Origin: Schmidtea polychroa
Lineage: Eukaryota
Reading direction: 5' to 3'
DNA length: 64,000 nucleotides
Assembly: GCA_044892525.1 (NCBI GenBank)
Contig: CM097885.1
Span: 18,726,001-18,790,000, forward strand
Positions 32,283 through 60,539 of this stretch are shown piece by piece (position 1 is the stretch's first letter; each line of letters starts with the position of its first letter). The position numbers and the translations under genes are program-made. The notes below the pieces were generated by a model. The model was not told the DNA's origin. It saw nothing but the letters and a program-made list of their open reading frames with translations, and searched no databases.

Positions 32283-32479
32283 AATTTCGATTTATTTCGA
32301 TTTATTTCAATTTATTTCAATTTATTTCAATTTATTTCAATTTATTTCAATTTATTTCAATTTATTTCAATTTATTTCAATTTATTTCAATTTATTTCAA
32401 TTTATTTCAATTTATTTCAATTTATTTCAATTTATTTCAATTTATTTCAATTTATTTCAATTTATTTCAATTTATTTCG
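32283..32479. repeat. 10-bp tandem repeat (TTTATTTCAA)n
   Basis: About 19 units. Confidence 0.97.
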
Positions 32480-32521
32480 TTTACTTTTCGGTGTTTCAGA
32501 AGGTGGGTAAATTTCGAACAG

Positions 32522-32820
32522 CTACGTTGGCAGTGGTCGGATTTGTGCGGTTACCGCCGCGTCGATGACCCGCTGGTTCAGTTTGGTCTCCAATGCGCGT
32601 ACTTGAATCTTCAGAGCGTGGATTTCGATTTGATCTTGGTCTGCTTGGGACTGAAGCTGTTGGATTTGAGTCATTCGCTTTTTCATCTCGGCTGGACTGA
32701 ACCAAGTGCTTTCGAGCTCCCGACATCGCCCCTTAAATTTCGCGACTCTGGCCTGAAGGCCTTCCACTTGTTTTTGGACTTGCTCCCGGTCCTTCCTTAG
32801 GTTCTTGAATAATTTGAACA
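32522..32820 (-). CDS. Unknown coiled-coil protein exon, 'TWFSP' family (C-terminally shortened)
   Basis: RCRELESTWFSPAEMKK; strongly similar to 54011-54417; begins at acceptor ttgtAG|TG. Confidence 0.65.
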
Positions 32821-33160
32821 CTACAATTTAAAGAAATTATATATAGACACATGCAGATAATAATCATCTATTCGATATCAAACGTTCAATCTTATTCTAT
32901 ATCATTGGGTTCCCATCAAATAATAAAGTCCTCAAGACCAGTTTAAAACGAAAATCGTAAACGATTTTTTTAATATCCATCTAAAACCCAAGTACCATAA
33001 AAGGAATCAACGAAATAAACACAATATTGTTTTATTAATGGTAATCAATTCAAAACTCAAATATCCAAATGAAAATCAATGAAATGAATATAACAGAGAA
33101 AATCTCTCTGCGTAAAGAAACAGGAATCACCATCCATAGTCATAACAATCCTTGTGTGGC

Positions 33161-33452
33161 TCATAGGTCAGCCTTCCTAGGTCTTCCCCGTTTCTTAAAA
33201 GGGGTGGATCTGACTTCGGCCTCTTCGATCGGTGTTTCGGCTGCCTCTGCGCGAAGTTGGGCTTCGATCACCCGGAGCTTGTGTTGAGCGAACTCGATCG
33301 CCACGATGACCTGGTTGCGGGCCTTTATTAGCCAACCTCAGTTCACGACCTCAGTTCCACTCGTGGATCTTGTACTACACGTATCTGGTCCTGAGTCGGA
33401 TAATTGCTTCATCATACTGATCTTCCTCATTGCAGTTACTGAGTTGAGACAT
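33161..33452 (-). pseudogene. AT-hook protein paralog with stops and a frameshift/deletion
   Basis: MSQLSNCNEEDQYDEAIIRLRTRYV*YKIHEWN*G / IKARNQVIVAIEFAQHKLRVIEAQLRAE..TPFKKRGRPRKADL*; aligns with 54695-55060. Confidence 0.8.
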
Positions 33453-34968
33453 TTCTACATTGTTAAAGTTATAATTCCGTTTGTTGTCAGATTAATAATA
33501 ATTAAAACTCAATCTCAATTACGTCGAGTTCAAGTTAAATTAAAGTCGAGTTTAATTATCTATCTTTTTTTTCTTTTTGAAATTAATTTTCCCAATTAAT
33601 AATGAAAATAAAATTAATTTAAAACATTTAAATTATAGTAATTCATAAATCATTTCTAAAATTGCTATGTTAATTTATGTTTGTTCTACTGAGAGGTTTC
33701 AGCAAAATTATAAGCTCAACAATTTAAAATTATAAATTTTGGTTGTAAATAACTATTTTCAACAATTTACGAAATCAAACATACTTTTTCATGATGACCT
33801 AATGGTAGTGAAATTGCATGCATAAAACTATGGTTTTCACAAATTCAGAAGGAACACGGCAGGAAACCCTCGAGAATGATATCTATCCGCATGAGAGCTA
33901 TCGGTATCGCAGGAGTATCCAAGTTTGTGTATAATACAAAGGTAAAATTTTCTTTTCTTAAAACTTATAATGAGATGTCTAGGAAGAATTCCCTGTAGGA
34001 AGAATTCCGAATTAAAACTCTGGAATTGCCGATATGTATATCGAATTGTTTAGATGAACATTATTTCTATCAGTACTTTAAAATTCGAAAGGTTATTTAC
34101 GGAAAAGGACGACTGTCTTGTGAATTTAACATTTGTTTACCATAGTTAGAGATTTATTTAAGACCAATTACTAAATTATCAACTCATGAATTTGAGATAC
34201 CTATTAAGAATATCCACTTTGTTTGATTTACAATATTACACAACCAAATATTAGGGGAAATTTACCAATTATGATTTTTGTGATTCGAAATACCGATGGG
34301 CAATTACGAATATTAGTGTGATTTAGGCTACTATATAAACTTTGGAATAACCATCTACATTGAATGTTAATTAATTAAAGCACTGTGATCAGCTTACTTC
34401 TGGAGCTTTACTCCGTTTACTGAGCCTTAGTGTAGTGTGATGAGTTGATTTTGAGTTTATTATGTCGATTATTCATGTAACAAAAGTCAATTACGGAAAG
34501 TTGCTTGCTTTCGCGGCCACATTGTGTCCACTACGACGAGCCCTAGTGTTATGTAGGTTGATAATATACTATCGACATATAAATATTATGATAACTCAGT
34601 CAGTTCAGAGTGAGTTTACCGACTTAACTCCGTGGCAGATACCATGAAGTGGTGCGACCTCCACTGACACAAAAAAAAGAAATTATAATTGTTAGACGCA
34701 ATTAAATTCAAGTCTTCTTCAAGCATTTATTTTTATAACAACTTCAAAAATTGAGCCGTTTACTAGAATATTTAAACACCGAGGCATGATAATTATTAAT
34801 ATTAATGTAATTACTGGTCATACATTTAATTGATTTAATTTAATATAATATGATATAATTTAATATAGAATTTAAATATACAAATTTAACAGAAATAATT
34901 ATTTCTACTAACTGATCTCACTTCTACCATTTAACCATAATAATTTTATATAGAGATTTACTAACTCC

Positions 34969-37900
34969 TTACATCCCCCCTTCTTTAAAATGCTTTAACT
35001 TTTCTATATTCCTCGTTATTTTTCTCCCGTTTTCGTCTGTTAATAAATAACTTCTTTCATGATTTCGTTTTATTACTGTGTATGGTCCTTCATATCTCTC
35101 GTGATCTTTGTTTCTAATTTCTTGTTTCACCAATACTTTGTCCCCCACTTCTAAGTTCCTAGTTGTGCCAATTTCTTTCGCTTGCTGTCTTTTAGCCTCT
35201 AATTTCCGCATGATTTCATTTCTATTCACTTCATTATTACTATGCCATTGCGATCTATTAATCTTTCTTCCAAATATAATTTCTGCTGGACTCACTCCAG
35301 TAGTTTTTTGAGCTGTCGCATTTAAAACGTATTCTATATCAGGTATTAATTCTGCCCAGCTTTTTTTAACTCCTTCTCTAAGTGACGCGTTAATATAGTC
35401 TCTTATAATACGAAATTGTCTTTCAATTACACCATTAGTATTATGATGATACGGACTCGAAAATATCAACTCAATTCCTGCTGCCTTTGCTAGTTCTTTA
35501 ATGCTATTTGCTTCGAAATTTTTTCCACAATCAACATGTAGTTCCTTAGGGGCTCCAAATTTCAATATCCAATTATTTAACAAAACTGCCTTTATTGTAT
35601 TTTCATCTTGCTTTCTAATAGGAGTTAGAGATATGTATTTACTGTAATGATCGATTATTGCACAAATAAATTTTTCTCCTCTGAAGGTTTCTCTTAATGG
35701 ACCGCAAATATCCATGTATATTTTCTCCATAGGTTCTGAAGCTTGAATTACTTGGGTTTTTTCTTTTGACTTTGTAGTTAAAACTTTGTTTTTCTGGCAT
35801 GCTTCACATATTGAAATAGTCTCTTTTACTTCATTTAGCAAATCTTCCATATCAAAATTGTTCCTAATATATTTCATAACTTTTTCTACTCCTGCGTGGC
35901 ATAATAATAAATGTGTTTCCTTAATCGTTTCTCGTCTTTTTGTTTCTGGTATCCATATTTTGTTTTGATTGGTATAGATAATATTTCCTTTTAACATATA
36001 TTTATTATTTTTCCTTTCATGTATTTGATCTTTTATATCTTGTATTTCTGCATTATCTCTTTGCCATTCATTTCCATTATTTTCGGTCATCAATGTTAAC
36101 AATCTAGTTTTTAATCGCCCTGATTTGGGGTTATCATGGTCCATCAAACATTGTACACATTTGCCGCATGTGTTTCTAGACAGCATATCTGCATTCGTAT
36201 GCGCCGTACCTTTTCTGAACTCCATTTTTATGTCTAAACTGCTCAAGTAATTTATCCACGTTTGGAACTGTGCTGTTATCGGCTTCTTTGTCGTTAACAT
36301 AAAAGTTATTGCTTTATGATCAGTGCGCAAAACAAACCGTTTACCTTATAAATAATGGTTGAAATGGCGACAGAAATAATATATAGCCAAAAGCTCTTTT
36401 CGTGTTATACAATATCCTCTTTCATGGCTACTCATTGCATGGGATCCACATGCAATAACGTGTTCATGCCCCATTTCATCTCTTTGTGATAATACAGCTC
36501 CAATTGTATCAAAGCTTGCGTCTGTATCTAATATGAATTCTTTCTTGAAATCTGGAAATACGAGAATTGGCGCTGTAGTCAACGCCATTTTCATTTCTTC
36601 GAAAACTTTCTCACATTCCTCAGTCCAGATTATTTTTTCACTATTGCTTCCACATATGCTTTCTAGCGCTCTTGATTTTGTTGCATATTCCTTAATAAAT
36701 CTCCGATAATAGTTACATATACCTAAAAAGCTTCTCAAATTCTTTATACACTTAGGCCTCTGAAATGATTTAATAGCCTCAATTTTACTTTGATCTGTCC
36801 GAATCCCCTGACTGTTAATAATGTGCCCTAAAAACTTTACTTCGCTCTTTAATAACTGACATTTTTCTGGGTTGATTCTCAATTTAGCTTCCCTTATTTT
36901 CTCTAGAACTTTTCCAAACACATTGTAATGTTCTTCAATTGTTCTTGTAAAAATTAAAATATCGTCTAAATACACCATAACTCCTTCTTTCCATAGATCT
37001 TTCAATATTTTTGTCATTAATTCTTGGAATGTACCCGGTGCCGCCGCAATGCCAAAAGGCATTCTATTAAAACAAAATTGCCCTTCTTTAGTAGAAAATG
37101 CTGTCTTTTCTTGCGATTCTTTGTCCGATTTCACTTGATAATAAGCGTTCCCAAGGTCTATAGAACTAAAGTACTTAGATCCATGTAATGTATCTAGAAT
37201 TTCTTCTACATTCGGCATAGGAAAAGCTTGTCTTTCAGTAATCTTATTAAGCTGTCTAAAATCTAAACAAAGTCTGATATCTTTTTTGTCTTTTTTCCAC
37301 ACGCATACTAACGGCGTATTCCAAGGTGAATTACATCTTCTTATGATATCATTATTTTCTAAATTTTTTATAGCAGCATTTATTTTCTCCTCTAAATTGA
37401 TGGGTTGCCTTCTGGGTTTTATCATAATTGGCCCTTCTTTTGTGATGATTTTATGTGCAATTAAATCAGTACATCCGATATCCCAGTTATTAGCCATAAA
37501 AACACTTTTATTGTTTTTAACAATCTCTAACAGTCTTTTATTTTCGTTTAATCTTAGAATTTCTATTGCTTTTTGACTTCTCTCGTTATCTGTAATCTTT
37601 TCCCCAAATCTAGCTTCTATTTCACACACAAATTCATTATATCCTTCTTCATTTTGCTTGATGTAGTTTAATTCAATTCCAAACTCTTTCTGCAATTCCA
37701 CTCCGCCTATTTTATCTGGAACAATATTTTTAACTATTATAAATGTTATTTTTCTTTCCATATTACCAATTCTAACATCAATATATATTTTTCCGATTGT
37801 CTCTAATTTACTATCATTTGCACATCTTAACATCTCATCTGTTTTTATGATTTTCACATTCACTAATTTTTCCACAACTGCTTCTGCCATTACATTTACT

Positions 37901-37989
37901 CTTGCTCCTGTATCTAGTAAGCATTTCATTCTATACCACTGAATTTCAAGAGTTGTACTCGGTCTACCTTGCATTTTGTCATAACTCAA
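34969..37989 (-). pseudogene. Gypsy pol (PR-RT-RNase H-IN) split by one in-frame TAA at 36346-36348
   Basis: LLDTGA; RLCLDFRQLN; YLDD; DTDAS; HFNHYL*GKRFVLRTDHKA; integrase H..H..CEAC, MDICGP, HVDCG, GVIERQFR; GPY. Confidence 0.95.
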
Positions 37990-38360
37990 TTTCGGTCGTT
38001 TCCATTCATCTTTAGTGAAAATATTTTGCTCCTCTGATATTTCATTAATCTACCCAATTTCCTTTCTCTCTAATTTATCTTCTGCCTTCTTAATAAATTT
38101 ATAAACTTTTTCATTTACTATTTTATTATTATATTCTGCTTCTTCAATTTCATTATACTCTTCTTGATTCTTAGGATTATTATTATTATTTATTAAAGAT
38201 CGATCAGCATTAAAATAACTATAACATTTAAAATTATTTAAAGGAAACTTTTTAAAATTACAAATTTTATTACATAAAGGTTCTACATTATTATTTATAT
38301 AAGGATTATTTACATTATTAAAATTATTATGACCAATATTTACATCAATATCAAAATTAC

Positions 38361-38978
38361 CTAGTATATTGCTCCGATCATTGCCTCCCGTGTCGAAGCA
38401 TGTACTTTTGGGTGCTGAATATCCTCATATTTGTCTTCTGCATCATCTGAATACTCAAGTGGCATCGTCTCATCATTAGGTTCAATTGCTGCAATTGTTC
38501 TTCCTGGATTGTTGATCTTTTGTTGATAGCTTGTGGTTCGATGGGCATAATAATTATTGTTTCTCATGTTTGAATTAGTTTGAAACTTCCTTCTTTCCAA
38601 ATTTGTATAGCAGTCAATCTCCTTATGTCCACGTAAGTGACATCTCTGGCATTGAATCGTTGAACATTCTCGCCGTACGTGGCCTTCAACTCCGCATGCA
38701 AAACACGTCATTTTCTTTTTCATTTGGCATTCTCGACTCACATGACCAATTTTCTTGCATGTCCAGCATTCCAATTGTCGGTTACTGACGTTTTGCTGCT
38801 TGAAATTATTATTTCCGTTTACCATTCCTCTTTGAGCAACATCTCTGTAGCTTCTGTAGTTTTGAACAACCGGTGAAGTCTTCACAACCTTAATATGGCC
38901 CATAATTTTGTTTACCTTTTCTAATTTCTTTATTGTCGCTTTTATTTCTTCTGATGTTTTCAAGTCTTTTTCAAGCAT
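38361..38978 (-). CDS. C-terminal part of Gypsy gag with three CCHC zinc knuckles
   Basis: CWTCKKIGHVSREC, CFACGVEGHVRREC, CQRCHLRGHKEIDC; the ATG lies at the LTR/gag deletion junction. Confidence 0.9.
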   Translation of the reverse strand: MLEKDLKTSEEIKATIKKLEKVNKIMGHIKVVKTSPVVQNYRSYRDVAQRGMVNGNNNFKQQNVSNRQLECWTCKKIGHVSRECQMKKKMTCFACGVEGHVRRECSTIQCQRCHLRGHKEIDCYTNLERRKFQTNSNMRNNNYYAHRTTSYQQKINNPGRTIAAIEPNDETMPLEYSDDAEDKYEDIQHPKVHASTREAMIGAIY

Positions 38979-40928
38979 TTATTTTTATAACAACTTCAAA
39001 AATTGAGCCGTTTACTAGAATATTTAAACACCGAGGCGTGATAATTATTAATATTAATGTAATTACTGGTCATACATTTAATTGATTTAATTTAATATAA
39101 TTTAATATAATATGATATAATTTAATATAGAATTTAAATATACAAATTTAACAGAAATAATTATTTCTACTAACTGATCTCACTTCTACCATTTAACCAT
39201 AATAATTTTATATAGAGATTTACTAACTCCTTACAATAATATTGATAAATGCATGTCAGGCAGTGACCTGCAGTTGTCAAGGCTGTGGGCTCTATGACAA
39301 TGATGATTTTACTTTCAAATAAGACTCAAGACTGGCTTAGTTCGTGTATCAGAATACGAGCACTACGACCTGAGTCACTCTTGTGGAAAGGAAAAGAAAA
39401 AAAACATCGCAATATTAATGTATTAGAATTATAATAATACAAACATAATCGACAAATATCCTTTAACTTGGATTTTAACTTAGATTTAACTTGGATTCAC
39501 AATCGACAAATATGGTTCAAAACTTTTTGGCATAAAGAGAATAAGTTTGTGACGAAAATGTGGCGGTATATATACCTATTCTTGTGTGTTCGAGTACGTG
39601 TGTATGTATTGTTGCATAAAACAAACTCGAAATCTTTTTAATTCTAGAACATTTTATTTTTGATTTGTGATGATTTTAATGGCAATTCTTGTGCCATAAT
39701 TTTTGTTTTTATTTTTAAAATTTTATTTTTTAATTAGTTTTCGTTAAATTTGCCTCCATGATGGATTTAGGCATTTCCAGAACATTCCATATTAAATTAA
39801 AGTTAATTTTTATTTTAGAATCGTTTTTCTGAATTTTTTTCTTGAATTTTTATTTTTTAAACTAATTTATTTATTTTTATTAACTTTATTGTATTGAATG
39901 GCTTCCATGATGGATTTCGCCATTTTTATGAATTGTTCTGGATTTTTGGCTAGAATTTAGTATTTCTACAGTTTTTCTACATTATTCAAGTTTGTTTTTG
40001 TATTTTTATGTTTCTCTGTTATGTTTGAGTTAATTTCCTGTGATACATCTTGCATTTATTTGATTTTATTTGTAATTTAAATGTTTTTATTTTCTGTTAT
40101 TTTTCTACTAATTATTATTGTTTATTTGATGTTGTCTATTTTTATTTACGTAAACTTACTGCTGGGTGTGCATGTTATGTACCACCACATTTCATCACTT
40201 TTTCCAAGATTTTGGGTCTAGAATGCAGTTCTAGCCCAACACATGCTTATTAAATTACTAACTTAGAGGGTGTACGAATTTTTTTCGCCGAAGCTTTCCA
40301 CATATAGACACCCGAGTGTTAGGGCATGTTTCCTTCACTAGCTATCATCCACAGTGGGCACAAGGTGCAACAGTGTGAAATGTGCAGATAAACTGCTTAC
40401 AACTCCTCGTAAGTCCCAATGTAATGTTTTACTGACTTCCAGTTTAGCTTGGTGACTTGAGACAAAAAATTTTATGATTTTATTCATTGAAAGTATTGTC
40501 GTCTAGTGAAACTAGAAAACAAAAATCAAATTAGTGGTATGTCATAAAACTAATAAAAAGATTCTTACTTTCAAAGTCAAAGCGCCTTATTACAAAATTT
40601 AGAAATTTTGGTATACCAAAAAATTCTGCACTAAATTGTGACCGTTTATATACTCTAATTTTTGTTTGCAAGTATGTGTGCGTGCATTGATGCAGTAAAT
40701 TAAATTCGAATTATTTTAATTATATTTAATTTTGACTCTAATTTTTATCAATTTTTTATTATTTATGATTTTATTTAATTCGTTTTGCTTTCTTTGATTT
40801 TACTTCACTTAGGACTATATCTGTGTGCATTTCGATCGCAACCCACGTTTACACGAGTAACAAATCAGCTTTTGCAAAAAATACGAAAGGTATAAATGGT
40901 AAGATGATGAGGGTACAGTAAGAAAATA

Positions 40929-41133
40929 GGGCGCTACACCTTTTACGGTAACTCATAAACCCCAGGGAATGTTAGGCCATTGGAAATTCTTATGTTAGGG
41001 CTCACATTTTATTGACCCCATGGCGCTTGCGACGGACGTTTAGTGATTAAATAAAATAATTATGCTCAGTTATCAGGGGAATGTAGGTATTACCAAAGCA
41101 TTGTCAAGGTTTCCTATACACGAACCCACCAGT
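40929..41133 (+). ncRNA. Degenerate copy C of a putative structured non-coding element
   Basis: acaccttttacggta ... gctcac ... aacccacca in the same order as in 53617-53822(-). Confidence 0.4.
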
Positions 41134-41734
41134 TTTCAGGTTGAGTCTCATCGCTCCTTGTGAGCGGGGGATTTTGATGTCGGAAACATTGAGCAGAGAA
41201 ACACAGAGACTCCAATTAGATGAGTGGGAAGAAAGGTCTTTCGAATCCGGATCCGGTCTCTACTCCATGCGCTTTGACAAACGTACAATGATAATTTTAA
41301 AAAATCCGTATTTTAAGAACCAGTTCTTCATACCAAAATTATTTTAGCAACAGGCTTGACAGGACAGTGCGAATCCATAGCAGCACATTACTATATGCAA
41401 ATAGCCATTACTAAAGTTAAACTTAATAACGATTTTAGTTAAATGGATGAAAGCTTTTGAAGAAATTGTTTATAATAGAAAATTTAAAATAGAATTTATA
41501 TTTCTAACTCTTAATAATAATTTCCAAATTTCTGATTGTAAGTAAATTCTTAATAAATCTAAAATATATATTAATATATTAAGATAATTTTATTTCTAAA
41601 TTAAATTACGATAAATTAAATTTCTAAATTTGAAACATCATCAATTTAAAATTATTTTATTTTATTAATTTTTATTATTTTCGTTTGTTTAAAAATTAAT
41701 ATTGAAGTATAAAATTAAAATATATAAATTAAAT

Positions 41735-45660: not shown

Positions 45661-48179
45661 TCCGTCGAGAAACGCAGACGATTACTAAGACGATACTAAG
45701 GACCAATCTTCAAAGGACAATTAAACAAACGCAATGTGAACTTACATTCACTTTACTAGGCAATGATGCATATACGTCAAGAGGATAGTTTTCGACAAAA
45801 GGTGATCTCCGCTTCTCAGAACTACTAGTTCTCAGACACTTCTTGGTTTCATAGACCACCGTTATGTCTGTTTCAAGTGTGTGTGGTTCCTAATTTATTT
45901 CTTTAACAAACTTCACCCATAGGACATTTCTCTTAATTTCACGTAATTGTAACGTATCAATCTTTTATTAACCTGGTAATGATCAATCGACAATTAAATT
46001 TATTAAAAAGGAAACTAACTAAAAAATGAATTCCCTATTGTTAAAGCTTAGGGTTGAACTACTTGCTATCTCTAAGGAGATGACGTGGTCTATAGCGATT
46101 ATTAGGATACCCTTAGAATAACCTTATTGTACCCTTGTAAACTGTATACAACTCTCACTTTAGTACTATATGATGTGGTTAAAATTCAAAATTGGAACTA
46201 CTACTCGATTGATCTACTCTTTTTATCTCAGACTGCCAATAGAAGTGTTTGGCAAAAATTGATTTTAGACCCAAGTATAGGCATAAAGACAAAATACATA
46301 GGAACACACTAACATAGCACTAAGTTAAGCTAAATAAAAAACATGTGAAAGCATCAAATAAACAAAATTAATAGAATTCACATCAGACAAGTAATAAATC
46401 AAAATTTAAAGATAAAAATCAAACAAAAGCAAGAAGTATTACATAAAATCCACAACAGAAGTAAACAAATTTTAATTAACGTTGATAAAGAGAAAAAAGG
46501 AACTGAAATCAGAAAGATTTCCATAAAATGATATCAAAAAGCAAATTAGAAATAAAATTTATGACAAAAACAAATGAGAAATCAAAACATTTGCAAAAAT
46601 CCATCATGGCCGCCAAACACCTTAACAAATTTAACAAAAAATAAACATTTGGAAATTAAAATTAATAAAAAGTAAAAATAAGTAACACAAAATTACCAGA
46701 AAATAAGTATTGCATATTAAATATACTGAAAACAACATAGAATAATCTGGGGAAACGCTCATATACATCATGGCGGCAAATCTAATTAAAAATAAATAAA
46801 ATTTGGAATATAAATACAAGTAGATTTTAAAAGTTAACCTTGATGTGTTCAGAGCATGCAGAAAAGAGAGAAACAATATTCAACCAATATGGATGCAGAG
46901 GCTGGCACATCATCTACAGACTGCTATAGGGCGTCTCAACGCGAACAGGATGTTGTGGTTTGGCTCATTCTAAGAGCAATTTTCAATAGCCATGTAGAGG
47001 CTAGGACATAAATAATAATAAGAATAAGTATAAATAATTAATAATTACTAAAATTAGAATAAATTAATATAAATAGTTTAGATAAATAAATAATTACTAT
47101 ATATGGAATAATTAATTACTATAAATAATAAAGACAAGTAGAATACTATAATAAGTAATTCATAAATAAATATATGTATAAATAGTAATATATAATTACT
47201 AAAATTAGTATTTACAATTATTAAATTAATATAAATAAGTCAGAATTTCTTAGTTAAGGGAGAAATAAATATTGTACGGTGCTGACAAAATCGATAACGA
47301 TTAAGCAGTGATTTACAGGAAAATTCTTTTCTACCAGTTTGTGAAGTTTATCATTGCAGAGAAAATAGCAGCAGTTACCAAGGCAATTAACCAGTCACAG
47401 TAGGTAGTTAGGAGCCCACTGCCGCAACCCCCCCCCCCCCTGCGGCAACTTTTTTTTTGCGGTAACTTTTTTATTACGCAATTGTTCCACACTATAGTGA
47501 GAGGGTCTCGATGGTCCTGGGATTTTCAATACAAAAAAAATTTTTTTCAATACAAAAACGATGGTCCTGGGATTTTCAATACAAAAAAATTTTTTCAATA
47601 CAAAAATCCGACTATCACTAAAAAAGCATGGAATTTTCAGACTATAGTGAGGGGGTCTCGATGGTCCTGGGATTTTCAATACAAAAAAAAATTTTTCTAT
47701 ACAAAAATCCGACTACCACTAAAAAAGCATAGAATTTTCACACTATAGTGAGGGGGTCTCCTTGGTCCTGAGTATTTCAATACAAAAATCCGACTACCAC
47801 TAAAAAAGTATGGAATTTTTCGCACTATAGTGAGGTGGGTCTCCTTGGTCTTGAGAACTTCAATAAAAAAAGGTGGTCTACACTAAAAAAGCCACGGATT
47901 TTTCAGACTATAGTGAGGTGGGTCTCCTTGGTCCTGAGAATTTCAATAGAAAAAGGCGGTCTTCAATAAAGAAGCATGGTAATTTAAGGTCTCAGGATTT
48001 TTTCAATACAAAAAGGCGGTCTTCAATAAAAAAGCATGGTAATTTAAGGTCTCAGGATATTTTCAATACAAAAATCCGACTATCAATAAAAAAGCATGGA
48101 TTTTTCGAATTAAATTAAGGTGGGTCTCCCTGGTCCTGAGAAAAAGGTGGTCTACACTAAAAAACGTGGTAAATTTTTC

Positions 48180-49074: not shown

Positions 49075-49745
49075 AACAACAAACCAACAACTTAGTACCA
49101 ACAACCAGTAACTTACGAACATGTATTAACAACCAGATACCTACAACTAGTTACTAACAACCAGTTACCTGATACCAAGTACCTACAACTAGATACTAAC
49201 AATATGTTACCAGATACCAAACACTTACATCTAGTTACTAACAATCAGTTACCTGCTACCTAGTACTTACAACTAGTTACTAACAACCAGATACCTGATA
49301 CCAAGTACTTATAACTAGTTACTAACAACCAACTACTTACAACTAGTTACTAACAACCAGTTACCTGCTACCAAGTACTTACAACAAGATACCAAGTACT
49401 AAGCACTGTCAACTAGATACCAAGCACTGACAACCAACATCAACCAGGTACTAAGCATTAATTACCAACTACTAAGTACCTACCAAGTACATACAACCAA
49501 CATCAACCAGATACCTACAACTAGATACTAACAACCAGTTACCAAGTACCTACAACCACCTACCCATTAACTAGCTACAACCAGCTAACAACTAGCTACC
49601 AACTACCAAGTACTAACAACCAACAACCAGCTAACAACTAACTACCAGATACCAACTACTTACAACCAACAACTAAGTACTAACAACCAGCTAACAACTA
49701 CATACCTAGTACTAAGCATTGTCAACTAGATACCAACCAGATGAC
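49075..49745. repeat. Strand-biased degenerate array (caactagttactaacaaccag / taccaagtac)
   Basis: Direct inspection; related tracts at 50260-51100 and, reversed, 11915-12270. Confidence 0.85.
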
Positions 49746-50129
49746 CACATGAAATTATTGGTTAAATAAGTAAATTAATATTTAATTTTTAAATTAACTA
49801 ATCAATGGTCTAAAATATTAAAGTCAATTTAAGATGAAAGTTTTCTGGGATTTTCAATGTTAATTTTAGATGCAAATCTTCGTCAATTAATCAATGACCA
49901 CATGAAATTATTAGTTAAATATGAAAATAAGGATTATATTTAGTTGTTAAATTAAGAAATAAAGGATAAATAGGTAAATTAAGGATAAGTAAATTAAAGA
50001 AAACAATGGTTTAAATTTTAAATTAAAGCTAAATGAGTAAATTAAAGTAAGATTTTTAAATTTATTATCAAAAGATTGAATAACCACCAACTTTTTTGAG
50101 AAATGTAATTTTTAATGAAAATTTAAATG

Positions 50130-50131
<2 letters not shown>

Positions 50132-50200
<69 letters not shown>
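50132..50200. repeat. (AAT)n microsatellite
   Basis: Direct inspection. Confidence 0.97.
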
Positions 50201-50203
<3 letters not shown>

Positions 50204-53200
50204 TTAATAATAATTATAATAATAATTAAACATTTACCAACAATCGGTTACTAAATATTTTTAACTAGGTGCTAACAAATAAGTACCAAATACTTACAAC
50301 TAGATACCAAGTACTAACTAACTCTCAAACAACCACATACTTACAACTAACTACTTACAATCAACTAAATATTCTTTATTATATTTTATGAAATGTATTT
50401 TTTAAAATTAATTTTTTATCTATATTCAAAAATATATTTAATTACAATCAGTAGAAAAACCTTTTCAAAATGTCTAAATTTAGCAAAAATGTTGATTTTC
50501 ATCAAAAAACCACAACTCAACCACTTTAAAACACCACGTGAAATTCAAAATAATTTAAATTACAATGAAAGACTAATGAATTCTAATTTACAAAACATTC
50601 TTCTTTTAAATGATAACTACTGAATTATTATGACAAAGTAAAAATCACATTCAATAAATACTTATTGTTGATCAGTTTTATTATATATACTCTGAGTTTA
50701 TCCGACAGGATGTTTTGACCCCCCTAAGGGTACAGGTCGTAAGGGTATTAGTCGTAAGGTTGCTGGTCGTAAGGATATTGTTAACTCTCAACCCCCACCT
50801 ACCCATTAACTACCTAACAAGTACTAACAACCAAGTCTCAAACAACTAAATACTAAACACTTACAATCAACTAACAACCAGGTACTAAGCATTATCAACC
50901 TACAACTATATAACAACAATCAGTAAACAACACTGTACCAACTACCAAATACAAGATACCAACAACTTAGTACCAACAATCAACTAACAACACATAAAAA
51001 TAATAGCAATTAAATACAAAATATTCTTCATCACATACAATATCTTCTTATCAAAATCTAAAAAGTCGACCAACTACTTACAACCAACAACTATGTACTA
51101 ACAAATTAATCTTTAAAAGAAAAATACTCATCACTTGAAAATTAGATGGAAAATTAATTGAACTCAAGGCATCAATAACTAGGTAAAAATTGATTAAATT
51201 ATTGTAAAAATTTAAATTATTCAAAATATACCAAATAATTATTATAAAAATTAAATTAATGGACAAGAAAAAATTCTAGTCATTAATCATCCAGTAAATA
51301 AAAAAAAATATTGATCATTCAAGTTAATATGAATCAACTAAGATAATAAATTAATAAAAATTTTGAAATAAGATCTAGTAGATAATTGATTTAGATTGAA
51401 TAAATTAATTGAAATAAAATTAATTTTAAGTATTTTTTTTAAAAGTACTCAAATTGATTGACTTATTTCTCAATATATTCAAAAAATCAGTATAAATTCA
51501 TTACAATTATCAAAGTCAGCAATCTACAATAAAAATAATTATCATTAAATTCCAAAAGAGACTAGATAGCTAATGATAACATCTAACAAACCAGTATTCA
51601 AAAGATTCCCATCGAAACCCTTCCCTCATTAAAAGCAACCGACTATATCTTTCTTAAAATGAAATATTTCCCATATTAACCGACTATATCCCTTTAAAAA
51701 TCATATATTCCCATCTTAACCCATCCCTCATTAAATTTAACCGACAATATCCCATCTTATCCGATCTCTCAGCAAATAATTCTACCCTTTTAAACATCTA
51801 TCCGATTATATCCCTTATTTTCCCTAAAGATTTCACCCACTTGAGCCCTTTAATATATATCAATCCTCTTAAAAACCTCAGAGAACTTCAAAAATATGAC
51901 TTTTAATTAATTGTTATAAAACCAGACAAATAGTAAGAGCCCATTAAAAGATCAAAATTCACTAAATTTTCTACAAATATTTACCATCAAATAAAAATAC
52001 ATCCAATTATCAAGAAATTAATTAAATTTATCTTAGAATTAGCATTAAATTATTAAATATTCATTCAATAAACATGAAATTTGCAAAAATGTTAGAAATC
52101 CACAAAAATAATAGAAATTTACAAAAATCAAAGAAATTCACAAAAATGATAAAAATTCATGAAAATGATAGATATCTACAAAAAATTAAGGAAATCCGCA
52201 AAAATAATAGAAATTCACAAAAATGATGGAAATTAATGAAAATGATAGAAATTCATAAAAATGATAGAAATTCATAAAAATGATAGAAATTTACTTGAAT
52301 AAAACCATCAACTTTAAAAATTATCAATACCTTAAACATCAAATTTGCCTAAATAATCATTCAAATAAAAGCATTAAATGATCAGTACCCTTGCGACATG
52401 TTGAATGTGAGTAGTACCCTTGTGAGCAATACCCATAGGGGGACAGAATATTTTGTCGGATAAACTCAGAGTATATATTAATTAACTCATTCAAATTTAT
52501 CATTGAATTAGTCAAATTATCGTAAATTTCGATAAAAAATCTAAAGTGGTAAGCAATGTAAAGAGAAATATTCTTTAAACTTTGATAGGACCAAGGAGAC
52601 ACCCTCACTATAGTCAGAATAATCCATGCTTTTTTATTGAAGACCGCCTTTTTCTATTGAAATTCTCAGGACCAAGGAGACCCACCTCACTATAGTCTGA
52701 AAAATCCTTGGCTTTTTTAGTGTAGACCACCTTTTTCTATTGAAGTTCTCAAGACCAAGGAGACCAACCTCACTATAGTGCGAAAAATTCCATACTTTTT
52801 TAGTGGTAGTCGGATTTTTGTATTGAAATTCTCAGGACCAAGGAGACCCCCTCACTATAGTGTGAAAATTCTATGCTTTTTTAGTGGTAGTCGGACTTTT
52901 GTATAGAAAAAAATTTTTTTGTATTGAAAATCCCAGGACCATCGAGACCCCCTCACTATAGTCTGAAAATTCCATGCTTTTTTAGTGGTAGTCGGATTTT
53001 TGTATTGAAAAAAATTTTTTTTGTATTGAAAATCCCAGGACCATCGAGACCCTCTCACTATAGTGTGGAACAATTGCGTAATAAAAAAGTTGCCGCAAAA
53101 AAAAAGTTGCCGCAGGGGGGTTTGCGGCAGTGGGCTCCTAACTACCTACTAGTCACTGCCACAGAAATTTACTATAAAAGCGAGAAGCAAAATTCATTTA

Positions 53201-53616
53201 GCAGAAACATTTGTTCAAGCAATTTTGCTTAGAATAAAATATCAAATTCAAAGAGAGATTAAAAGCTATAAAGCTTCTTGGTGAATTGATCACAGAAAAG
53301 GGAATCCAACCAATATTTTGAACCGTGAAGTTATTTGAATATATTTAATTTTCAATAAAAAATTTAATTGCACAACCCGGCCACAAGAACCAGCATTTCT
53401 GCCTATCCTACTCGTTGGAGATTAAATTTTCAGAGGGTTTAGTATAGGTAACGCTAGATCAAACTTGATCTAGTCGATCGCGCAAACTTCGGGAAATCCC
53501 TCCTTCTTGTCCCAAACTTTAAATACAGTGCTATGAGCAATTAGAGGGGATTCTGTAGGGACTCAGAACATTACTACCAGTGGTCTCAAGAAGTAATTTA
53601 TTTTATAATCTATATT

Positions 53617-53822
53617 GGTGGGTTACTGGTGGTCGAGTGTTTAAGTGCTGTTACCAGCGTAACCCAGGATACAACATTATTTTTCCGCTTGGTACCCGTT
53701 GAGTAATCAACGTTGGTACTGTACCAAGGGGTGAGTACTCGCAAAAAGTGAGCGCATCAAGGCACTATAATTGTCGAGTACTCTATGGGTTCACGGACTA
53801 CCGTTAGAAGGTGTGTGTCCGA
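53617..53822 (-). ncRNA. Putative structured non-coding element, copy A
   Basis: Stems GAGTACTCG/CGAGTACTC; GTACC-AA-CGTTGA(ttac)TCAACG-GGTAC; TGGGTTA..CTGGT/ACCAG-TAACCCA; motifs shared with 59984-60250. Confidence 0.55.
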
Positions 53823-54010
53823 TTTATCAGGTCCCTTATCAAAATTGTTTTCCCAACCTTACGCACAAACTCTCACTTCTCAGGCAATCACAAAAGGTAT
53901 TGGATATTATTTTAATATTACAAAATCTGTGTTATTTTAATGCTACAACAAGGTACAAGACACACTACCAAATGTACACAAAACAACATCTCGTAACAGT
54001 TCAGATCGGC

Positions 54011-54417
54011 TTATTGGCGGAGCCTGGCCTTTAGTTTCTTTAGTTTCTCCCGAATGTTCCGTCCAAGCCGCTTTCGTTTAGGCTTACTTTCAACTACTGG
54101 GGGATATATTGTTGCGAGCTCCACGGCCAGTGGCCGTATTTGTCTTGCCACGGGCTCCTGCACCAACTGCTCATTTCGCGCAGTTTCGAGCGCCCGCACC
54201 TGTAGTTTCAGGGCGCGGATCTCCATTTGGTCTTGTGCGGCCTGTGCCTGCAGCTGGAGGATCTGGGTTGTTTTCTTCTTCATTGCTTCGGGACTAAACC
54301 AGGTCCCCTCAAACTCCCGACATTTTCCTTTCAACTTGTCCACCCGGATTCGGAGTTCATCGGTTTGCTGCTGGGCCTGCTCACGATCCTTGCGTAGGTT
54401 CTCCATCAATTTATACA
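54011..54417 (-). CDS. Unknown coiled-coil protein exon, 'TWFSP' family, basic NLS-like C-terminus
   Basis: Open frame KCREFEGTWFSPEAMKK...SKPKRKRLGRNIREKLKK; preceded by ctaat + polypyrimidine + AG|TG acceptor; GC-rich island. Confidence 0.72.
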
Positions 54418-54694
54418 CTAAAAAGAGAGAAAAAAAATTAGTTTCCATTACATCCAAAAAGAAAGTTAAAACCAATGACTAGTAAAATTAATGAATCGAT
54501 ATTAGCATTTCTACTGAGGTATCTTCATACTCTTCCATCTATCAAGTAATGCACAGAACAAAAGAAAACACTTTATTCGAGAATAAACACCCGACGTCTA
54601 TTGGTATACAAAACGAAATTAAATTAAACACAACGACTGCTAATAGTTCATTCATATAAACGTGAGTTGTCTAAGTTAAATGAATTGTCCACAA

Positions 54695-55060
54695 TCACAA
54701 TGGTTGCTTGCGGGGCCTCCCCCTCTTCCGCGGAGTTACCTCGGCATTTTCGAGCTCCTCTAGGGATACCCCTTCTCTCTGGACCCGAAGTTGCAGTTCC
54801 AATCTCTTCAGCCGGCTCTGAGCGATTTCCACATCAACGGCCGCTTGATCTCTGGCCTCTCGGAGTGCGTTGTTCTCCGGCTCCGTCTTCACCCATGCCG
54901 GGGCATCCGGTTCTGGACCACTTCTGATAACTGGACCAAAGTTGTCAAGGTCCAATCCACGATTCCAGTCATGGATGCGGTACCAAATATACCGCGTACG
55001 GAGCCGGGTAATCATTTGTCGGTGGTTCTCTTCATCGCTGGAGTTACTTGATTGTGACAT
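54695..55060 (-). CDS. 121-aa unknown protein with C-terminal AT-hook (KRGRPRK)
   Basis: Intact ATG-stop ORF; canonical AT-hook core; paralog at 33161-33452. Confidence 0.75.
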   Translation of the reverse strand: MSQSSNSSDEENHRQMITRLRTRYIWYRIHDWNRGLDLDNFGPVIRSGPEPDAPAWVKTEPENNALREARDQAAVDVEIAQSRLKRLELQLRVQREGVSLEELENAEVTPRKRGRPRKQPL

Positions 55061-56099
55061 ATCTATGATTATCCAAAATATAAGACTGTTGATTATTACA
55101 TAGAAAAAAAATTGTTGAAACTCTAGGCTTAAGATTAAATTTCTACTAGCAATCCATAGCCAGGGAGTTCACCTAAGGGACTTTACTACAACATCTATCT
55201 TATCAAAGGCATAACCCGTTGATACCTGCCTCAGTGGTGACTTAGCCGACAACAGTCAAACAGAACAGACAACCCCCAGAGAAAAAATCTAAAATTTTGT
55301 ATTTTCGTCTGCGGTTTATTTATATTCATTATAATATTCGACCTGACGACGTAGTTTCTTCTTAAAATTGGAATTAAGAAGCAAATTCGATTGTTTTAAT
55401 GGTTCAAAACCATTAATTGATGGTTTACATTATAGTATACTATTTAAAATTTCTAAATTATCTAATTTAGATTTTTAATTTATTATTAACCCAATTGGCT
55501 TCAAAGAAAATCTTCGTCGACGGAGAGATTCGTTGTTGAATCGTATTCCAACGCCTCTTCGTCAGCGAAGCCGTTCATAATAGTCTAATCCGCTTTTTCA
55601 TATATTACTCCTCCTTCTTTAGCTTGTTCAGAATCTACTCCATCAACCACATTCCGTCGGAAATAATTGCTTTATCTGTGACTGGCTCCTCAGCATTACG
55701 GAAGATTTCGTTGTTGGTTGGTACGAAGAATGATCGATCTGAGAGATCTCCCTTCACGGTAGATTATTTTAAGATATGGTAACTCAGGTCTAGTTTAAAA
55801 TTTAACATTCTTTGTCAAGATTAGCAACAGTGATTATAATGATGGTATTTATGATTAATAATGATTATAGGGCACGAGTCCCAATATTAACTAGCATGCC
55901 AGGGTTCATGGCAATTCTACTTATAAAGCGCATTATGTAGTCCTACTTTGAATCACCTATTATAATTTTTAAAACCCAAACAAAAAATTTTTAGATATAC
56001 TTTGTGGATGGATAATTTCGAATTTTATTTTGATCCTAAGAATCAACTATGCTGTATGAGTAGGTGTTTATGGATTATGTTGCGGAGATTGGGAGTAGG

Positions 56100-57490
56100 T
56101 ATACTTTATATTTGTATGCTTATAAATTATGTTTTAGTAGATAATGATAATGGATGAGTATATCGTTATAGATTATATTTCCAACTTGAAATTAATAAAT
56201 TGTGTTCCTGAACATGAAAATAGTGGCAATTTCTGGTTATGTGTAAAATATATTTTAACTTGTTGTTCGTGCTTTGGAGTGGGGTGGTTACAAATTGTAC
56301 TTATACTTAATATATAGCCATGGTTTATAGTTGTATTTTAGAAAATTATAATCTTAACATTTCAACTTAATTATACTTTATAAATAGTTTAAATTCTTTA
56401 CACTTATAAGTTACGTTTTCAACTTGGAAGTTATTTGTATTTTATAGTGGGGAATTATACATTATATGTTGTACTTCATCTATGATCATAGTTTATAGTT
56501 ATATATAAATTATAATTTTAGCCTTAAACTTTAGTTATACTCTATAAATAGATTATAATCTTTACACTTATAAATTATGTTTTTAACTTGAAATTTATCT
56601 ACATTTCATAGTGGGGTGATCATAAATTAGATTTTCTATTTAATATATAGTTATTATAGTTATACATTTATAAATTAAAATTTTAACATTAAAATTTAAG
56701 TATACTTTAGGAATAAATTATATCTTTTACGCTTGATAAATAGTTATAGTATTAGTTATGGGCTTATAAATTTTATTTCAACTTAAGATTTAATTGTACT
56801 TTACGAATGGATTATATTTTATAATTATGATTTTATAAATTATATTTTTAACATCGAAATCCAATTACATTTCCTAATTAGAGGCCTATAACTATATTTC
56901 GAACTTCGAAATGATTATATTTTTGTAATTCTTGGGTTTAAAATTTATATTTCTATACTTAGTAAATAATTATAATTTATGATTATGGATTTGTAAGCCA
57001 TATTTCTACCATTAACGCTTAATTATACTCTATACTTAGATGCTTTATATTTATATTTCCACACTCAGGAATGACCATACTTCATAATTATGGGTCTAAA
57101 GATTATATTTTTACTCTCAATGAATAATTTTAGTTCCAATTACCAACTTGTATATTATATGTTTAACATCAAAGGTTTGGTTACACTTTACATTTACATG
57201 TATATAGATTACATTTCTAAATTCGAAAGTGATTATAATTATGAGATTATAAATTATATTTTTTACATCAAAGATTTAATTATACTCTATAATTAGAGGT
57301 TGGTAAATTATATTTTCGAACTTAAAAATGATTATATCTCATAATTAAAGGTTTATAAATTATACTTTTACGTTTAATAAATACTTATAGGTTATAATCG
57401 TGGATTTATCAATTATATTTTCAACACCAAGAATTTGGTAATACTCTATAGTTAGCCGTTTATAGATTACATTTCGGAATTTAAAAGGAG
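56100..57490. repeat. Degenerate AT-rich tandem array (tataaattatattt..aactt..aattatact motifs, ~40/80-bp period)
   Basis: Recurrent motifs by eye; period not measured. Confidence 0.6.
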
Positions 57491-58992
57491 TTATATACTA
57501 CAATTAGGGGTTGCTTCCATGGCCCCACTGTGACCACTTCCACAAACCTTAATGTTATGTGCTAAGTCAACCCTTTACGGCTGACCTTTAATAAATACAA
57601 AGAGTCAGACGGAGGTTTTCCTCGACCTAACTCCATGGCAGGACCATGAAGTAGTTCGACCTCCGAAGGACCCGAACAAAAAAGGGACGGTATAATAATA
57701 GATCGATATAATATTAATAATGCATGTCTGCATGTCCTATGAATTTAAATTTTAATAAATTGGATGCAGGACCGAACAACGACGCAGTAATACCAGTACG
57801 CCATTGAACATTCGTATATCATGGAAAAAATCAAAAGCAAGAGACATCAAAATATGCAATTACTTTAATTTTAACCTGAATAAATCATCACTACAATAAA
57901 AATGAAAAATAGATCCTCAGCCCAATAAAAATGAAAAAATAAATTATCAATATTATAAAAATGAAAAAATAAATCATCACTACTCACTATTTGTGTTGAC
58001 AAGATTTTTCTCAAAAATTGGCATAAAATGGTGATTGAATTATGCCCGAACTGTATACTGTGAACATAGCACCTGAAAATCCAACGTAGTGAGAAAACGC
58101 CAGATCGATTTTGATTTTCATGGAATAGGCAAACACAAGTGAACAGATTGTGGGTTCGAGTGTCAACACTACATGCAGATACATACCAACGATAACGTAA
58201 TAGTAAGCCCGTGACAGTTCTACACAAATCCATCGATGAGAAACCATTGGGTTATCTACTGCAAATCACCCGCAGTAGCACTCGCCAGGGAATCGTTCCA
58301 TATGCCATGCTCAACATTTTGTCATAATTTTCCGTTATCTGCCATAACAGTAGGTGAGTTCACCAGCCGATAATCTTGGGTTAGCAAAATCATCCCGTCA
58401 TACTAATATGTTAATTTCCGATTTCTGATACAATTCTCTGTAAATAATGGAGCTTGATGCATGCGACAGATAGTTAATAGCGTACGATCAAAAATCTTGA
58501 GTACACATTTTGGAATTACGGAATTTTAGCATTATAAGAGTTTATTATTAAAATTGATTAAATTTGTGAATTTGTTAAATTTTCATGTCTAATAATTGTC
58601 TAGAAAGGGTGAAAAGAGAGTTTACGAGACAAACCCGACTAATTTTCCTTCTAACTAACAAGTCTTTAAACATATTTGTAATGTTTCCGAGAAAATATTT
58701 AAATATTATTGTATTCACATAACAACAGGGCCTCTTTTTCGATAATAAATCACTATACCTAATGAGGCGATGCCCTATGTTACTGACCCGTTTTCTGTTA
58801 TTAAATTAGACAGAATGGTAAAGCTCGATTGTCTGGGGGGAATTTCTCTTGTCCGCCGACCTGTTTTTCTTTTCTTGTCTGAATAGTATAAGCAAATGGT
58901 ATGAAATTCGAGACAGTTAATGACTGGTTAATTCGAAATGATGGCTTTGTAAATCTAGTCTTCTTGTGATTATCTTTATTTCTTCTTTGCAG

Positions 58993-59605
58993 TTACCAGA
59001 TATGCTACCAGGTACAAAGACCACTCTCAGACCCTGCTTTTCTTGCGCAGACAAGAATGCTATAATCAAAGACCTACAAGCCCAGATCGGTCGATATAAG
59101 AGAAAGATCGACGAGTTGGAAGGTACATGGTTTAGCCCAGTACAGATGAAGGAGGTACAAAAGAAACTGTACCGTAGCGAACACTGTCGCGACGCTCTAA
59201 TCACGGAAAGCAGATCTCAACGCAGCCTAATAAAAGAGCAATCGGAGGCTCTCCACAAAGTCTATCTACAGGCAGCTACCACCCGAAAAATCGTCCGCAT
59301 CCCAATTCATGGAGCGGACAACTTCTTTCGATCCGTCACCTCCAGCCAAGAAGCCTTGTCGCGAGTGTGTGGAAGCCGACCTTTCATCCAAGCCTACTGA
59401 TGTGATCTTCACCGGAACCAGCAAGGTGTTGCCACCTATCGCGTCTACGCCTGCGGCGCAACCAAATACACTGCTTGCTTCAAAACCCAAGCGACGGCAA
59501 CTATCGAGAGCCGAGCGCAAGAAGAAACAACGAGAGCGAGTAGCTGCTAAGGAGAGAAAACAATCGGCAAATGCTCCTGTTAACGCAAACAGTCTGCCAC
59601 TATAA
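58993..59605 (+). pseudogene. Divergent 'TWFSP' family gene split over two overlapping frames
   Basis: Acceptor ttctttgcAG; KIDELEGTWFSPVQMK; second frame ends ASKPKRRQLSRAERKKKQRER, like the tail of 54011-54417. Confidence 0.65.
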
Positions 59606-59983
59606 TCGATTTGACGACAGGGATCCCAGGGCGTATCATCTCCGCTGCTGGCGTTACCTGGGATGAAAATGCGTCGGAATTTTTCGACTTGGAGGAACTT
59701 TTAGCCGACACCGAATGGGAAAAGTGATGACCCCTCGGCGGTGTGACAGTTTTGTTAGTGGACATCCGCAACGGGCTATTGATCTTTCGATGTCGTTGTA
59801 TACATCTTGTGTGTAAATCTGTTTTGTGTTTATTATCATCTAATAAATCATATTTTTATTCTCGAATAATTCCTTTGCGTGATGTTTTGATGTGAATTTC
59901 CTATAATTATATGATGAAACTCCTGAGACTCGATGATGTACTAAACCCTTGTATCCAGCTTAGACACGGCGAAAGTATTAGTT

Positions 59984-60250
59984 GGACGTAAGCCCTTCTA
60001 ACGGCAGTCGGGAGAAGGAAGTCGAGGCCTCAGAAAGGAGTAGTCCTAAGGCAGGGGCTCACCTGCTTTCTGGCGTCTCGCCGGCATAGTGCATTACCAA
60101 CGTGAAGTGATTCACGGGTACTATGTTGGAGTATAGATTGTGCAGGGTTCTACCCCGAGTTGACGAAAGAGTAAACGAGGTATGTGGAATGGGCAATCAT
60201 CCCTTAGACGAGAACGTAAAGTGGTTTAGGTCAACCGAGTAGTACCCCAG
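59984..60250 (+). ncRNA. Putative structured non-coding element, copy B
   Basis: CCTTCT/AGAAGG; CAGAAAG/CTTTCTG; CCGGCATAG..TACC-AA-CGTGAA(gtga)TTCACG-GGTA-CTATGTTGG; GTTGAC/GTCAAC. Confidence 0.55.
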
Positions 60251-60539
60251 CATTATAAATTCTTTATCATTTGGAGTAAATTTGTTTGAGGCAAAAATAA
60301 TTAAAGGAGTCATAATAGAAATATGGTTATCATTTAACCAATTAAGGGGCTTATTAGTTAGAAATATATAAAATAAAGTAACAATTATTTTCTAATTTAA
60401 TGAGATGATCATTGGGCGTAGTATATCTTTGCGAGAAATACATAGGTTAAGATGTTTGAGTAACCAAAACATGGATATTTTGTGCGATCAATTTATGAAT
60501 ATTGGTTAATTTAGTCATATAAAATAATAATAATAATAT

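Follow-up and report, generated by a model that had tools for sequence, protein, structure and literature searches.

A conserved, high-copy orphan gene cassette at two loci of Schmidtea polychroa, possibly left by a large DNA element

The 64,000-nucleotide (nt) stretch of Schmidtea polychroa DNA analysed here (assembly GCA_044892525.1, contig CM097885.1, forward-strand positions 18,726,001 to 18,790,000; 'the window', in whose own coordinates all positions are given) is AT-rich animal DNA, with a GC content of 19-47% per kb, that is densely filled with transposon pieces. Two of its loci, locus 1 at ~31-42 kb and locus 2 at ~53-61 kb, share a cassette composed of a gene for a predicted coiled-coil protein (here called TWFSP), an AT-hook gene and a conserved non-coding block, and a preliminary description had read them as two decayed, syntenic members of one large, possibly Gypsy-derived element. 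The loci were compared by self-BLAST and by all-frame protein comparison, with significance taken from shuffled sequences (z scores and shuffle counts), and other genomic copies were seen via contigs from four public runs (X1, X2 and X5 among these) placed on 53170-61800. This comparison, which had been proposed as a check, found the three modules colinear and in the same orientation at both loci, but did not extend the synteny to the right arms beyond the block or to a left RNA module in locus 1. The features of the shared core, with the sequences that interrupt it, are as follows.

32522..32820, minus strand: TWFSP coiled-coil exon of locus 1, with a premature stop and its tail out of frame.
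33161..33452, minus strand: AT-hook gene of locus 1, with an in-frame stop and a frameshift; AATAAA lies 125 nt past the stop.
34489..34689, unstranded: conserved block of locus 1, first part, with an nhmmer match to locus 2.
34690..39235, minus strand: young Gypsy insertion with gag, protease-reverse transcriptase (RT)-RNase H and integrase, ~280-bp long terminal repeats (LTRs) that are 96% identical, and a target-site duplication (TSD) ATAAT.
39236..39435, unstranded: continuation of the locus-1 block, holding a purine tract at 39385-39404.
54011..54417, minus strand: TWFSP exon of locus 2, open, encoding two long predicted helices, a break at TWFSP and then a basic tail.
54695..55060, minus strand: AT-hook gene of locus 2, intact, 121 amino acids (aa), with the C-terminal end PRKRGRPRKQPL; AATAAA lies 118 nt past the stop.
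55186..57489, unstranded: low-copy spacer of locus 2, with a degenerate ~160-bp tandem array at ~56000-57500.
57493..57875, unstranded: conserved block of locus 2, seen in the alignment to locus 1 and as a contig-depth island.

The TWFSP exons of the two loci (32820-32522(-) and 54417-54011(-)) are 64% identical in nucleotides and 62% identical over 98 aa, and the AT-hook genes (33452-33161(-) and 55060-54695(-)) show 43-48% aa identity. The AT-hook stop and the TWFSP splice acceptor are a similar distance apart at the two loci (~340 bp at locus 1 and ~280 bp at locus 2). Between the AT-hook gene and the block lie ~1.0 kb at locus 1 and ~2.4 kb at locus 2, ~1.5 kb of the latter being the degenerate tandem array; these longer spacers do not align with each other (z 0.3). 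Over the 98 codons of TWFSP, the proportion of synonymous differences (pS) is 0.835 and that of nonsynonymous differences (pN) 0.222, with 23, 20 and 63 differences at the three codon positions, so TWFSP has diverged under purifying selection between the loci. Because pN lies far below pS, the two loci are read as members of two old, formerly active mobile-element subfamilies and not as products of a local duplication. In addition, the GC content at third codon positions (GC3) of the cassette genes is 0.52-0.59, versus 0.22-0.26 in the window's Gypsy RT, hAT and RNA-recognition-motif (RRM) open reading frames (ORFs).

A pyrimidine-rich YAG stands directly before all four of the four TWFSP-family copies, and the failure of this gene type to keep an N-terminal methionine suggests an upstream exon. 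Poly(A) signals follow five of the six gene copies examined, on both strands; in the case of the locus-2 TWFSP gene these are ATTAAA hexamers 70 and 95 nt past the stop. The AlphaFold model built from a six-row TWFSP alignment has helices at 2-40, 44-105 and 121-135 with a break at TWFSP (predicted local distance difference test score 79.9, predicted template-modelling score 0.33), and a BFVD structure search with this model gave 0 of 46 matches at E<=0.001. The best ESM Atlas values, 0.90 and 0.80, were to hypothetical proteins, followed by delta antigen at 0.77 (rank 12), with recognition values that were all low. The locus-2 AT-hook protein reached the Pfam AT_hook family at E 0.14, under the cut-off. 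The sole outside homologue is a two-member unnamed ENA cluster (42% identical, on contigs of <640 bp); further protein homologue searches and sequence collection scans returned no other relative, the single locus from a collection scan being rejected as a chance 8-residue match in an unrelated phage ORF. As a separate observation, the stretch 30982-31030, to the left of locus 1, resembles 55182-55232, upstream of the locus-2 AT-hook gene (2 of 300 shuffles score as high), and is possibly a promoter word of the family.

The conserved block totals ~400 bp. Its first part matches across the loci at nhmmer E 5e-14 (34489-34689 versus 57493-57696), and it resumes behind the young Gypsy, where 39236-39435 aligns with 57708-57875 (z 4.3, 1 of 300 shuffles). 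A peptide, DLTPWQ, had been named as the module here; the module is indeed common to both loci in the same orientation, but the locus alignment carries a 1-nt indel straight after the motif, so the block is non-coding and the peptide a chance reading of its DNA. The young Gypsy at 34690-39235 is no part of the parent element; it splits the block. A solo LTR of its family at 9239-9529, 87-89% identical to the LTRs of 34690-39235, sits in the RT region of an older Gypsy-like element at ~8069-11147.

Relatives of these modules are abundant elsewhere in the genome. In run X1, contig depth, which is a sum over overlapping contigs and does not equal copy number, forms islands over a folded module called RNA A (4.5e4-1.1e5), TWFSP (1.0e4), the AT-hook gene (5.8-7.3e3), the block (2.4e4), a second TWFSP-type gene of locus 2 called TWFSP' (6.5e3) and a second folded module, RNA B (5.0e4); the spacers stand at 66-361 and difference-free contigs at 23-25, and no depth bin of 53170-60081 lies under 41. 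The genomic relatives of the modules likely number hundreds to thousands. In other copies, RNA A adjoins TWFSP (joint 53888-54036, depth 365-390) and TWFSP adjoins the AT-hook gene (joint 54425-54692, ~305), and the consistent order across copies on which the earlier proposal had been staked was thereby found for the left arm. Both spacers are covered in part by paralogous contigs; those over parts of the right spacer and the start of TWFSP' carry 12-17% differences. A common mobile parent for TWFSP, the AT-hook gene and the non-coding block is supported on three counts: their colinearity, the purifying selection, and the contigs that join modules in other copies.

Beyond this core, four sequences of one RNA-like type were found, together with a short piece that truncates one of them.

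40885..41110, plus strand: RNA C, a weak, decayed relative of RNA A (z 3.6).
45758..45939, minus strand: RNA D, a further copy (z 13 versus A, z 4.1 versus B) that has lost its P3 hairpin and was absent from the preliminary description.
53558..53616, unstranded: 59-bp piece, a 100% inverted copy of 61252-61310, which cuts RNA A at 53617.
53617..53850, minus strand: RNA A, folded, outward-facing, past the TWFSP 3' untranslated region (UTR).
59950..60251, plus strand: RNA B, outward-facing, past TWFSP', cut at 60252 by another repeat family.

RNA A and RNA B align with z 10 (0 of 100 shuffles) and are about half identical. Compared with shuffled sequences, the fold of A gives z -3.9 for its 181-nt core and -1.9 for 284 nt, and that of B gives z -2.1 for the core and -2.6 for a longer window. 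In a 20-pair structure taken from the folds of these two sequences, 40 of 40 cells are paired (25-46% in slid controls), 5 of the 20 pairs change on both sides, and one A-U becomes G-U, a change that favours the outward strand; the covariation score was reached by 21 of 500 shuffles, with only two sequences and a structure chosen from them. The shared, covarying fold is suggestive of a candidate new RNA fold. RNA C and RNA D have lost the fold while retaining short words of sequence: neither is recovered by the A/B covariance model, and the 'RNA copy' C of the earlier account keeps its weak likeness to A but shows none to B (z -0.6) or D (z -0.8) and folds no better than shuffles (z +0.6). RNA D belongs to a third locus at 45758-46820(-), in which a T-rich block like that of the locus-1 right arm is followed by the RNA, and which is parted from locus 2 chiefly by a passenger insertion at 47399-53150. 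A search of Rfam and of loose core matches for a hammerhead ribozyme found none by Rfam and three matches to the loose core, all outside the RNA modules and with a stem II of 0-2 bp.

The RNA modules had also been taken for structured termini, yet no natural end of A or B is seen: each is cut by unrelated sequence with no bracketing TSD, and termini are thus not demonstrated. The 59-bp inverted repeat was rejected as a terminal inverted repeat (TIR), there being no TSD and contigs of other copies extending past the right copy on either side (just 29 X1 contigs could be placed at two positions); on these grounds the pair 53558-53616 and 61252-61310 is probably a local templated copy from the neighbouring repeat family. 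A reading of RNA A as a solo LTR (53554-53999, TG...CA) was likewise rejected, since the 59-bp copy makes up its left part and the flanks match at 3 of 4 positions only, as were ORFs past RNA A and RNA C that look homologous by eye, with a score reached by 776 of 1000 shuffles. The depth ratio between runs changes at 60252, where RNA B ends in a loose end. From there to 61800 runs a separate high-copy repeat whose depth in run X5 far exceeds that in X1 and that in X2; its joint 61771-60383 points to a possible tandem unit of ~1.4 kb.

The remaining features belong to the right arms and to the left end of locus 1.

31533..~31940, plus strand: a decayed TWFSP-type copy, the third, preceded by TTACAG, which resembles a 3' splice site; blastp E 0.044.
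32284..32478, unstranded: 10-bp microsatellite of locus 1, standing in place of the TWFSP tail, with no RNA module downstream.
39525..40810, plus strand: gene-less right arm of locus 1, in which a direct repeat (M1 at 39525-39750, M1' at 40606-40810) flanks a T-rich block.
58993..59727, plus strand: TWFSP' gene of locus 2, in two frames, with a CxxC, a coiled coil with TWFSP, a second CxxC, a basic stretch and an acidic-aromatic tail.

The first part of TWFSP' (58993-59400(+)) is a paralogue of TWFSP with 26-28% aa identity, and AATAAA lies 115 nt past the gene end; its basic stretch and acidic tail suggest that the protein may act as a transactivator. The third TWFSP-type copy has a C-terminal tail that aligns to the locus-2 tail (1 of 300 shuffles). 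In the locus-1 right arm, M1 and M1' match each other (z 11), and the T-rich block matches 46245-46820(-) with z 15 (0.4 for the wrong-strand control). M1 also resembles the 3' UTR preceding RNA B (z 4.4, with no shuffle of 300 scoring as high; the pair was one of 10 compared), whereas M1', the copy that adjoins RNA C, does not (z -0.3). At both loci an outward RNA-like module lies 1.5-2.1 kb past the end of the block. The back-to-back arms with structured ends of the preliminary description therefore fit locus 2, but not locus 1, with its missing left RNA, its non-homologous right arm and its extra TWFSP copy. The cassette is real, under selection, present in high copy and orphan; a full two-arm parent is demonstrated at neither locus.

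The origin that we tentatively favour, while holding it somewhat less than an even bet, is that the loci are decayed remnants, without replication genes, of two old subfamilies of one large DNA element, most likely of the Maverick/Polinton type or a non-autonomous derivative of it. With the same reserve, what survives may be the accessory, regulatory cassette of a Maverick-type parent that had undergone an old mirror duplication. Separate genes with poly(A) signals of their own on both strands, a module that recurs in inverted and diverged form, and gene-less arms that carry the module are together more readily accounted for by a DNA element than by an LTR element. The presence of several ORFs on both strands is a trait that the loci share with Mavericks/Polintons. 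In addition, 47399-53150 is a gene-less 5.75-kb element with AGTAG-type ends (the end signature of Mavericks), ~590-bp inverted arms, subterminal repeats and a 6-bp TSD, AGTCAC; it is likely a Maverick passenger, and it shows that such gene-less, AGTAG-ended passengers exist in the window. A partial relative of this element lies at 15434-15773.

If the parent was of this type, each small gene would have been its own spliced, polyadenylated RNA polymerase II unit, with transcription running outward from a central control region that would correspond to the conserved block. The AT-hook protein is predicted to bind AT-rich DNA, and TWFSP and TWFSP' are predicted to be coiled-coil, dimerising nuclear proteins, with TWFSP' predicted to contribute, in addition, a basic stretch and a transactivation-type acidic tail; jointly, the three might switch on or package the element. 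The unit of gene, 3' UTR and RNA module may have been duplicated once, long ago, to give the mirror-oriented second arm of locus 2. The RNA module could act in cis as a single-strand structure on the outward strand, borne also by gene-less arms such as those of C and D. Integrase and polymerase of autonomous partners would have spread the copies, and insertions and deletions would then have broken them.

A number of results weigh against this interpretation, beside the limits on contig depth and on the covariation score given above. No AGTAG/AGAGAG end with a 6-bp TSD and no long, near-identical TIRs were found at locus 1 or 2, and RNA A and RNA B, being only about half identical, are not TIRs of one element. 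A Pfam scan of 24 ORFs and 10 read-through frames of the window gave 0 matches to protein-primed DNA polymerase B (pPolB), integrase, protease, ATPase or capsid. Since the defining Polinton features are absent from the loci, both of which are truncated, the cassette is not filed as a Polinton member. The right arms of the two loci are unrelated beyond ~200 bp past the block (z 0.1), locus 1 has no left RNA (z -0.6, -1.1), and its third TWFSP copy, which the preliminary description lacked, lies in the opposite orientation and is convergent on the locus-1 TWFSP gene. Among the contigs listed, none crosses 57865-58095 or spans the whole locus, and the right spacer reaches only ~2-6x the single-copy level in X1 and X2. 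An alignment of all four RNA sequences has hardly any consensus fold. Selection on the AT-hook C-terminus is weaker (pN 0.435 over 56 codons; 31, 23 and 34 differences by codon position), and a third-position bias is missing from the listed contig variants (1 of 4 in TWFSP, 3 of 9 in the AT-hook gene), as would be expected if these variants mark decay of the locus-2 copy.

Some of the same observations would follow if only the core (RNA A, TWFSP, the AT-hook gene and the block) were one mobile unit, and the right-hand parts (TWFSP' with RNA B in locus 2, the T-rich arm with RNA C in locus 1) belonged to distinct, though related, elements brought head to head by insertion or recombination. The lack of relation between the right arms, the recurrence of a T-rich arm with its RNA alone at 45758-46820, the four RNA-like copies within 20 kb, which make neighbours common, the extra convergent TWFSP copy of locus 1 and the depth of the right spacer, which is the lowest, are all points in its favour. 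However, the block extends ~200 bp rightward at both loci, both have the outward RNA-like module at its distance of 1.5-2.1 kb, the paralogous contigs continue over the right spacer and into the start of TWFSP', and no junction has a TSD or an end signature, so that we regard this alternative as rather unlikely, though one to be taken seriously.

A Gypsy origin in the broader sense was weighed next to these. The RT-like relic at ~34270-34330 on which it had partly been based has the letters quoted, but within its surroundings (34232..34440, plus strand) it has no statistical support: of 1000 shuffles, 199 scored at least its 30 against the window's intact Gypsy RT, a tblastn search that used eight of the window's Gypsy ORFs as queries gave a best E of 0.16, and there were 0 PDB matches at E<=10 and 0 Pfam matches in the covering frames. 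The purine tract exists (39385-39404), yet it is part of the shared block, its counterpart lying inside the locus-2 block, and CA rather than TG stands behind it, so it is not a polypurine tract (PPT). No direct LTR pair of the form TG...CA with a TSD brackets either locus, and no primer-binding site (PBS) was recognised at either in a by-eye comparison with tRNA ends. With genes on both strands that have their own poly(A) signals, and a GC3 of 0.52-0.59 versus 0.26 in the Gypsy RT, the Gypsy derivation of the preliminary description was not upheld.

A more specific form of this idea is that the cassette is a long LTR or a 3' accessory region of a giant Gypsy element like Burro. TWFSP', its poly(A) signal and RNA B would then be U3-R-U5, the AT-hook and TWFSP genes would lie antisense, and the surplus RNA modules would be solo LTRs. 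Burro elements are LTR-bounded and encode a single giant polyprotein, with up to 25 kb of internal sequence, a 4,873-aa ORF1, accessory ORFs, tandem repeats and thousands of copies (PMC6431247), and the RNA modules are indeed 5-10x deeper than the genes, with a faint RT-like motif nearby. Against this, A and B are inverted rather than direct and about half identical, the relic is not significant, the purine tract has no TG behind it, no PBS was recognised, and GC3 is unlike that of the window's Gypsy RT. We consider a Burro-like parent unlikely.

Less credible again is that the parent was an undescribed kind of element or an endogenised DNA virus, with divergent spliced regulators whose transcripts would each end in a structured RNA, such as one that is self-cleaving or forms 3' ends. 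The unnamed two-member ENA cluster is its only homologue, no Rfam family matches the RNA modules, and no ends typical of a known class were recognised; however, missing ends say little where both loci are truncated, and large elements usually carry orphan accessory genes. Spelled out, and equally doubtful, this would be a new, very abundant planarian element or endogenous DNA virus whose putatively spliced orphan regulators (AT-hook; coiled-coil, basic and acidic) are expressed in both directions outward from the central block, and whose arms end in an RNA absent from Rfam that forms transcript ends or serves as a replication or packaging signal, borrowed by thousands of gene-less passengers. 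A tRNA-like RNA polymerase III unit is dismissed, since ARAGORN found 0 genes, neither an A box nor a B box lies inside the block or RNA A/B, and no strict B box occurs in the regions scanned.

The window contains several further features outside the two cassettes. Two mir-753-like hairpins (13126-13186 and 63435-63495; mir-753 is, we presume, a planarian microRNA) each score 61.8 bits against an Rfam gathering score of 62, and a literature search on mir-753 found nothing. Both lie in a 1-kb repeat of which the window has two copies (12344-13342 and 62685-63651, 93%), and a transposon may thus be the carrier of this microRNA-like hairpin. At 41693-42922(+) there is an intronless 409-aa frame with an RRM domain and RS-rich repeats, presumably Tra2-like and possibly a retrocopy, and at 17333-19123(+) an unbroken 596-aa hAT transposase frame with a BED finger and a dimerisation domain. 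Related proteasome-subunit-like fragments occur at 14467-15264(-) and 44964-45500, one of them with internal repeats, and a truncated DDE_3 (Tc1/mariner-like) transposase frame at 29711-30418(+) is followed by actin-like fragments.

Planarian genomes are shaped by giant mobile elements with poorly annotated cargo. If the cassette is Maverick-borne, two orphan protein families and a covarying RNA module would be added to the accessory set of these elements, and a handle would be gained on the mobilisation of passengers. The RNA module is small, abundant and open to direct probing or a self-cleavage assay. A literature search whose scope excluded motif names, repeat libraries and the primary Burro paper found no paper on such a layout; the family could already stand in a repeat catalogue, or its ORFs be described in the Burro literature, and if the cassette is a catalogued repeat its value falls to that of annotation.

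Several known systems offer points of comparison. Geminivirus TrAP and HBZ of human T-cell leukaemia virus 1 are small viral transactivators which, like TWFSP', have a short, probably spliced gene and features among a basic stretch, cysteine pairs, a coiled coil and an acidic tail; there is no sequence or fold match, and the likeness is functional only. The ORFs of Terminons are co-oriented, whereas those of the cassette diverge, and the cassette lacks a hammerhead, telomeric repeat or RT. The Terminon/Athena Penelope-like elements of bdelloid rotifers resemble the cassette in having coiled-coil ORFs followed by a structured RNA module (PMC6431247). With Burro/GYPSM1 the cassette has in common a planarian-type host, a very high copy number, accessory ORFs and tandem repeats (PMC6431247), but it differs in having no LTR pair, gag-pol-env polyprotein, PBS or PPT, an inverted RNA module and separate poly(A) signals on both strands. 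From Mavericks/Polintons the cassette loci differ in the absence of a TIR pair, an AG-type end, a 6-bp TSD and a core gene, and an AT-hook gene, splicing and a structured RNA module have no mention for Mavericks or adintoviruses in the consulted passages of either source (PMC6431247; PMC8502044), 'AT-hook' and 'splic' having 0 occurrences in PMC8502044. Polintons, as the relevant passages of one source describe them, gain 5-10 ORFs with indifference to orientation (PMC6431247). It is with Mavericks/Polintons and adintoviruses, as far as the consulted portions of both sources describe them, that the cassette shares small accessory ORFs on both strands and conserved but unassigned proteins, with gene-less passengers present in the same window (PMC6431247; PMC8502044).

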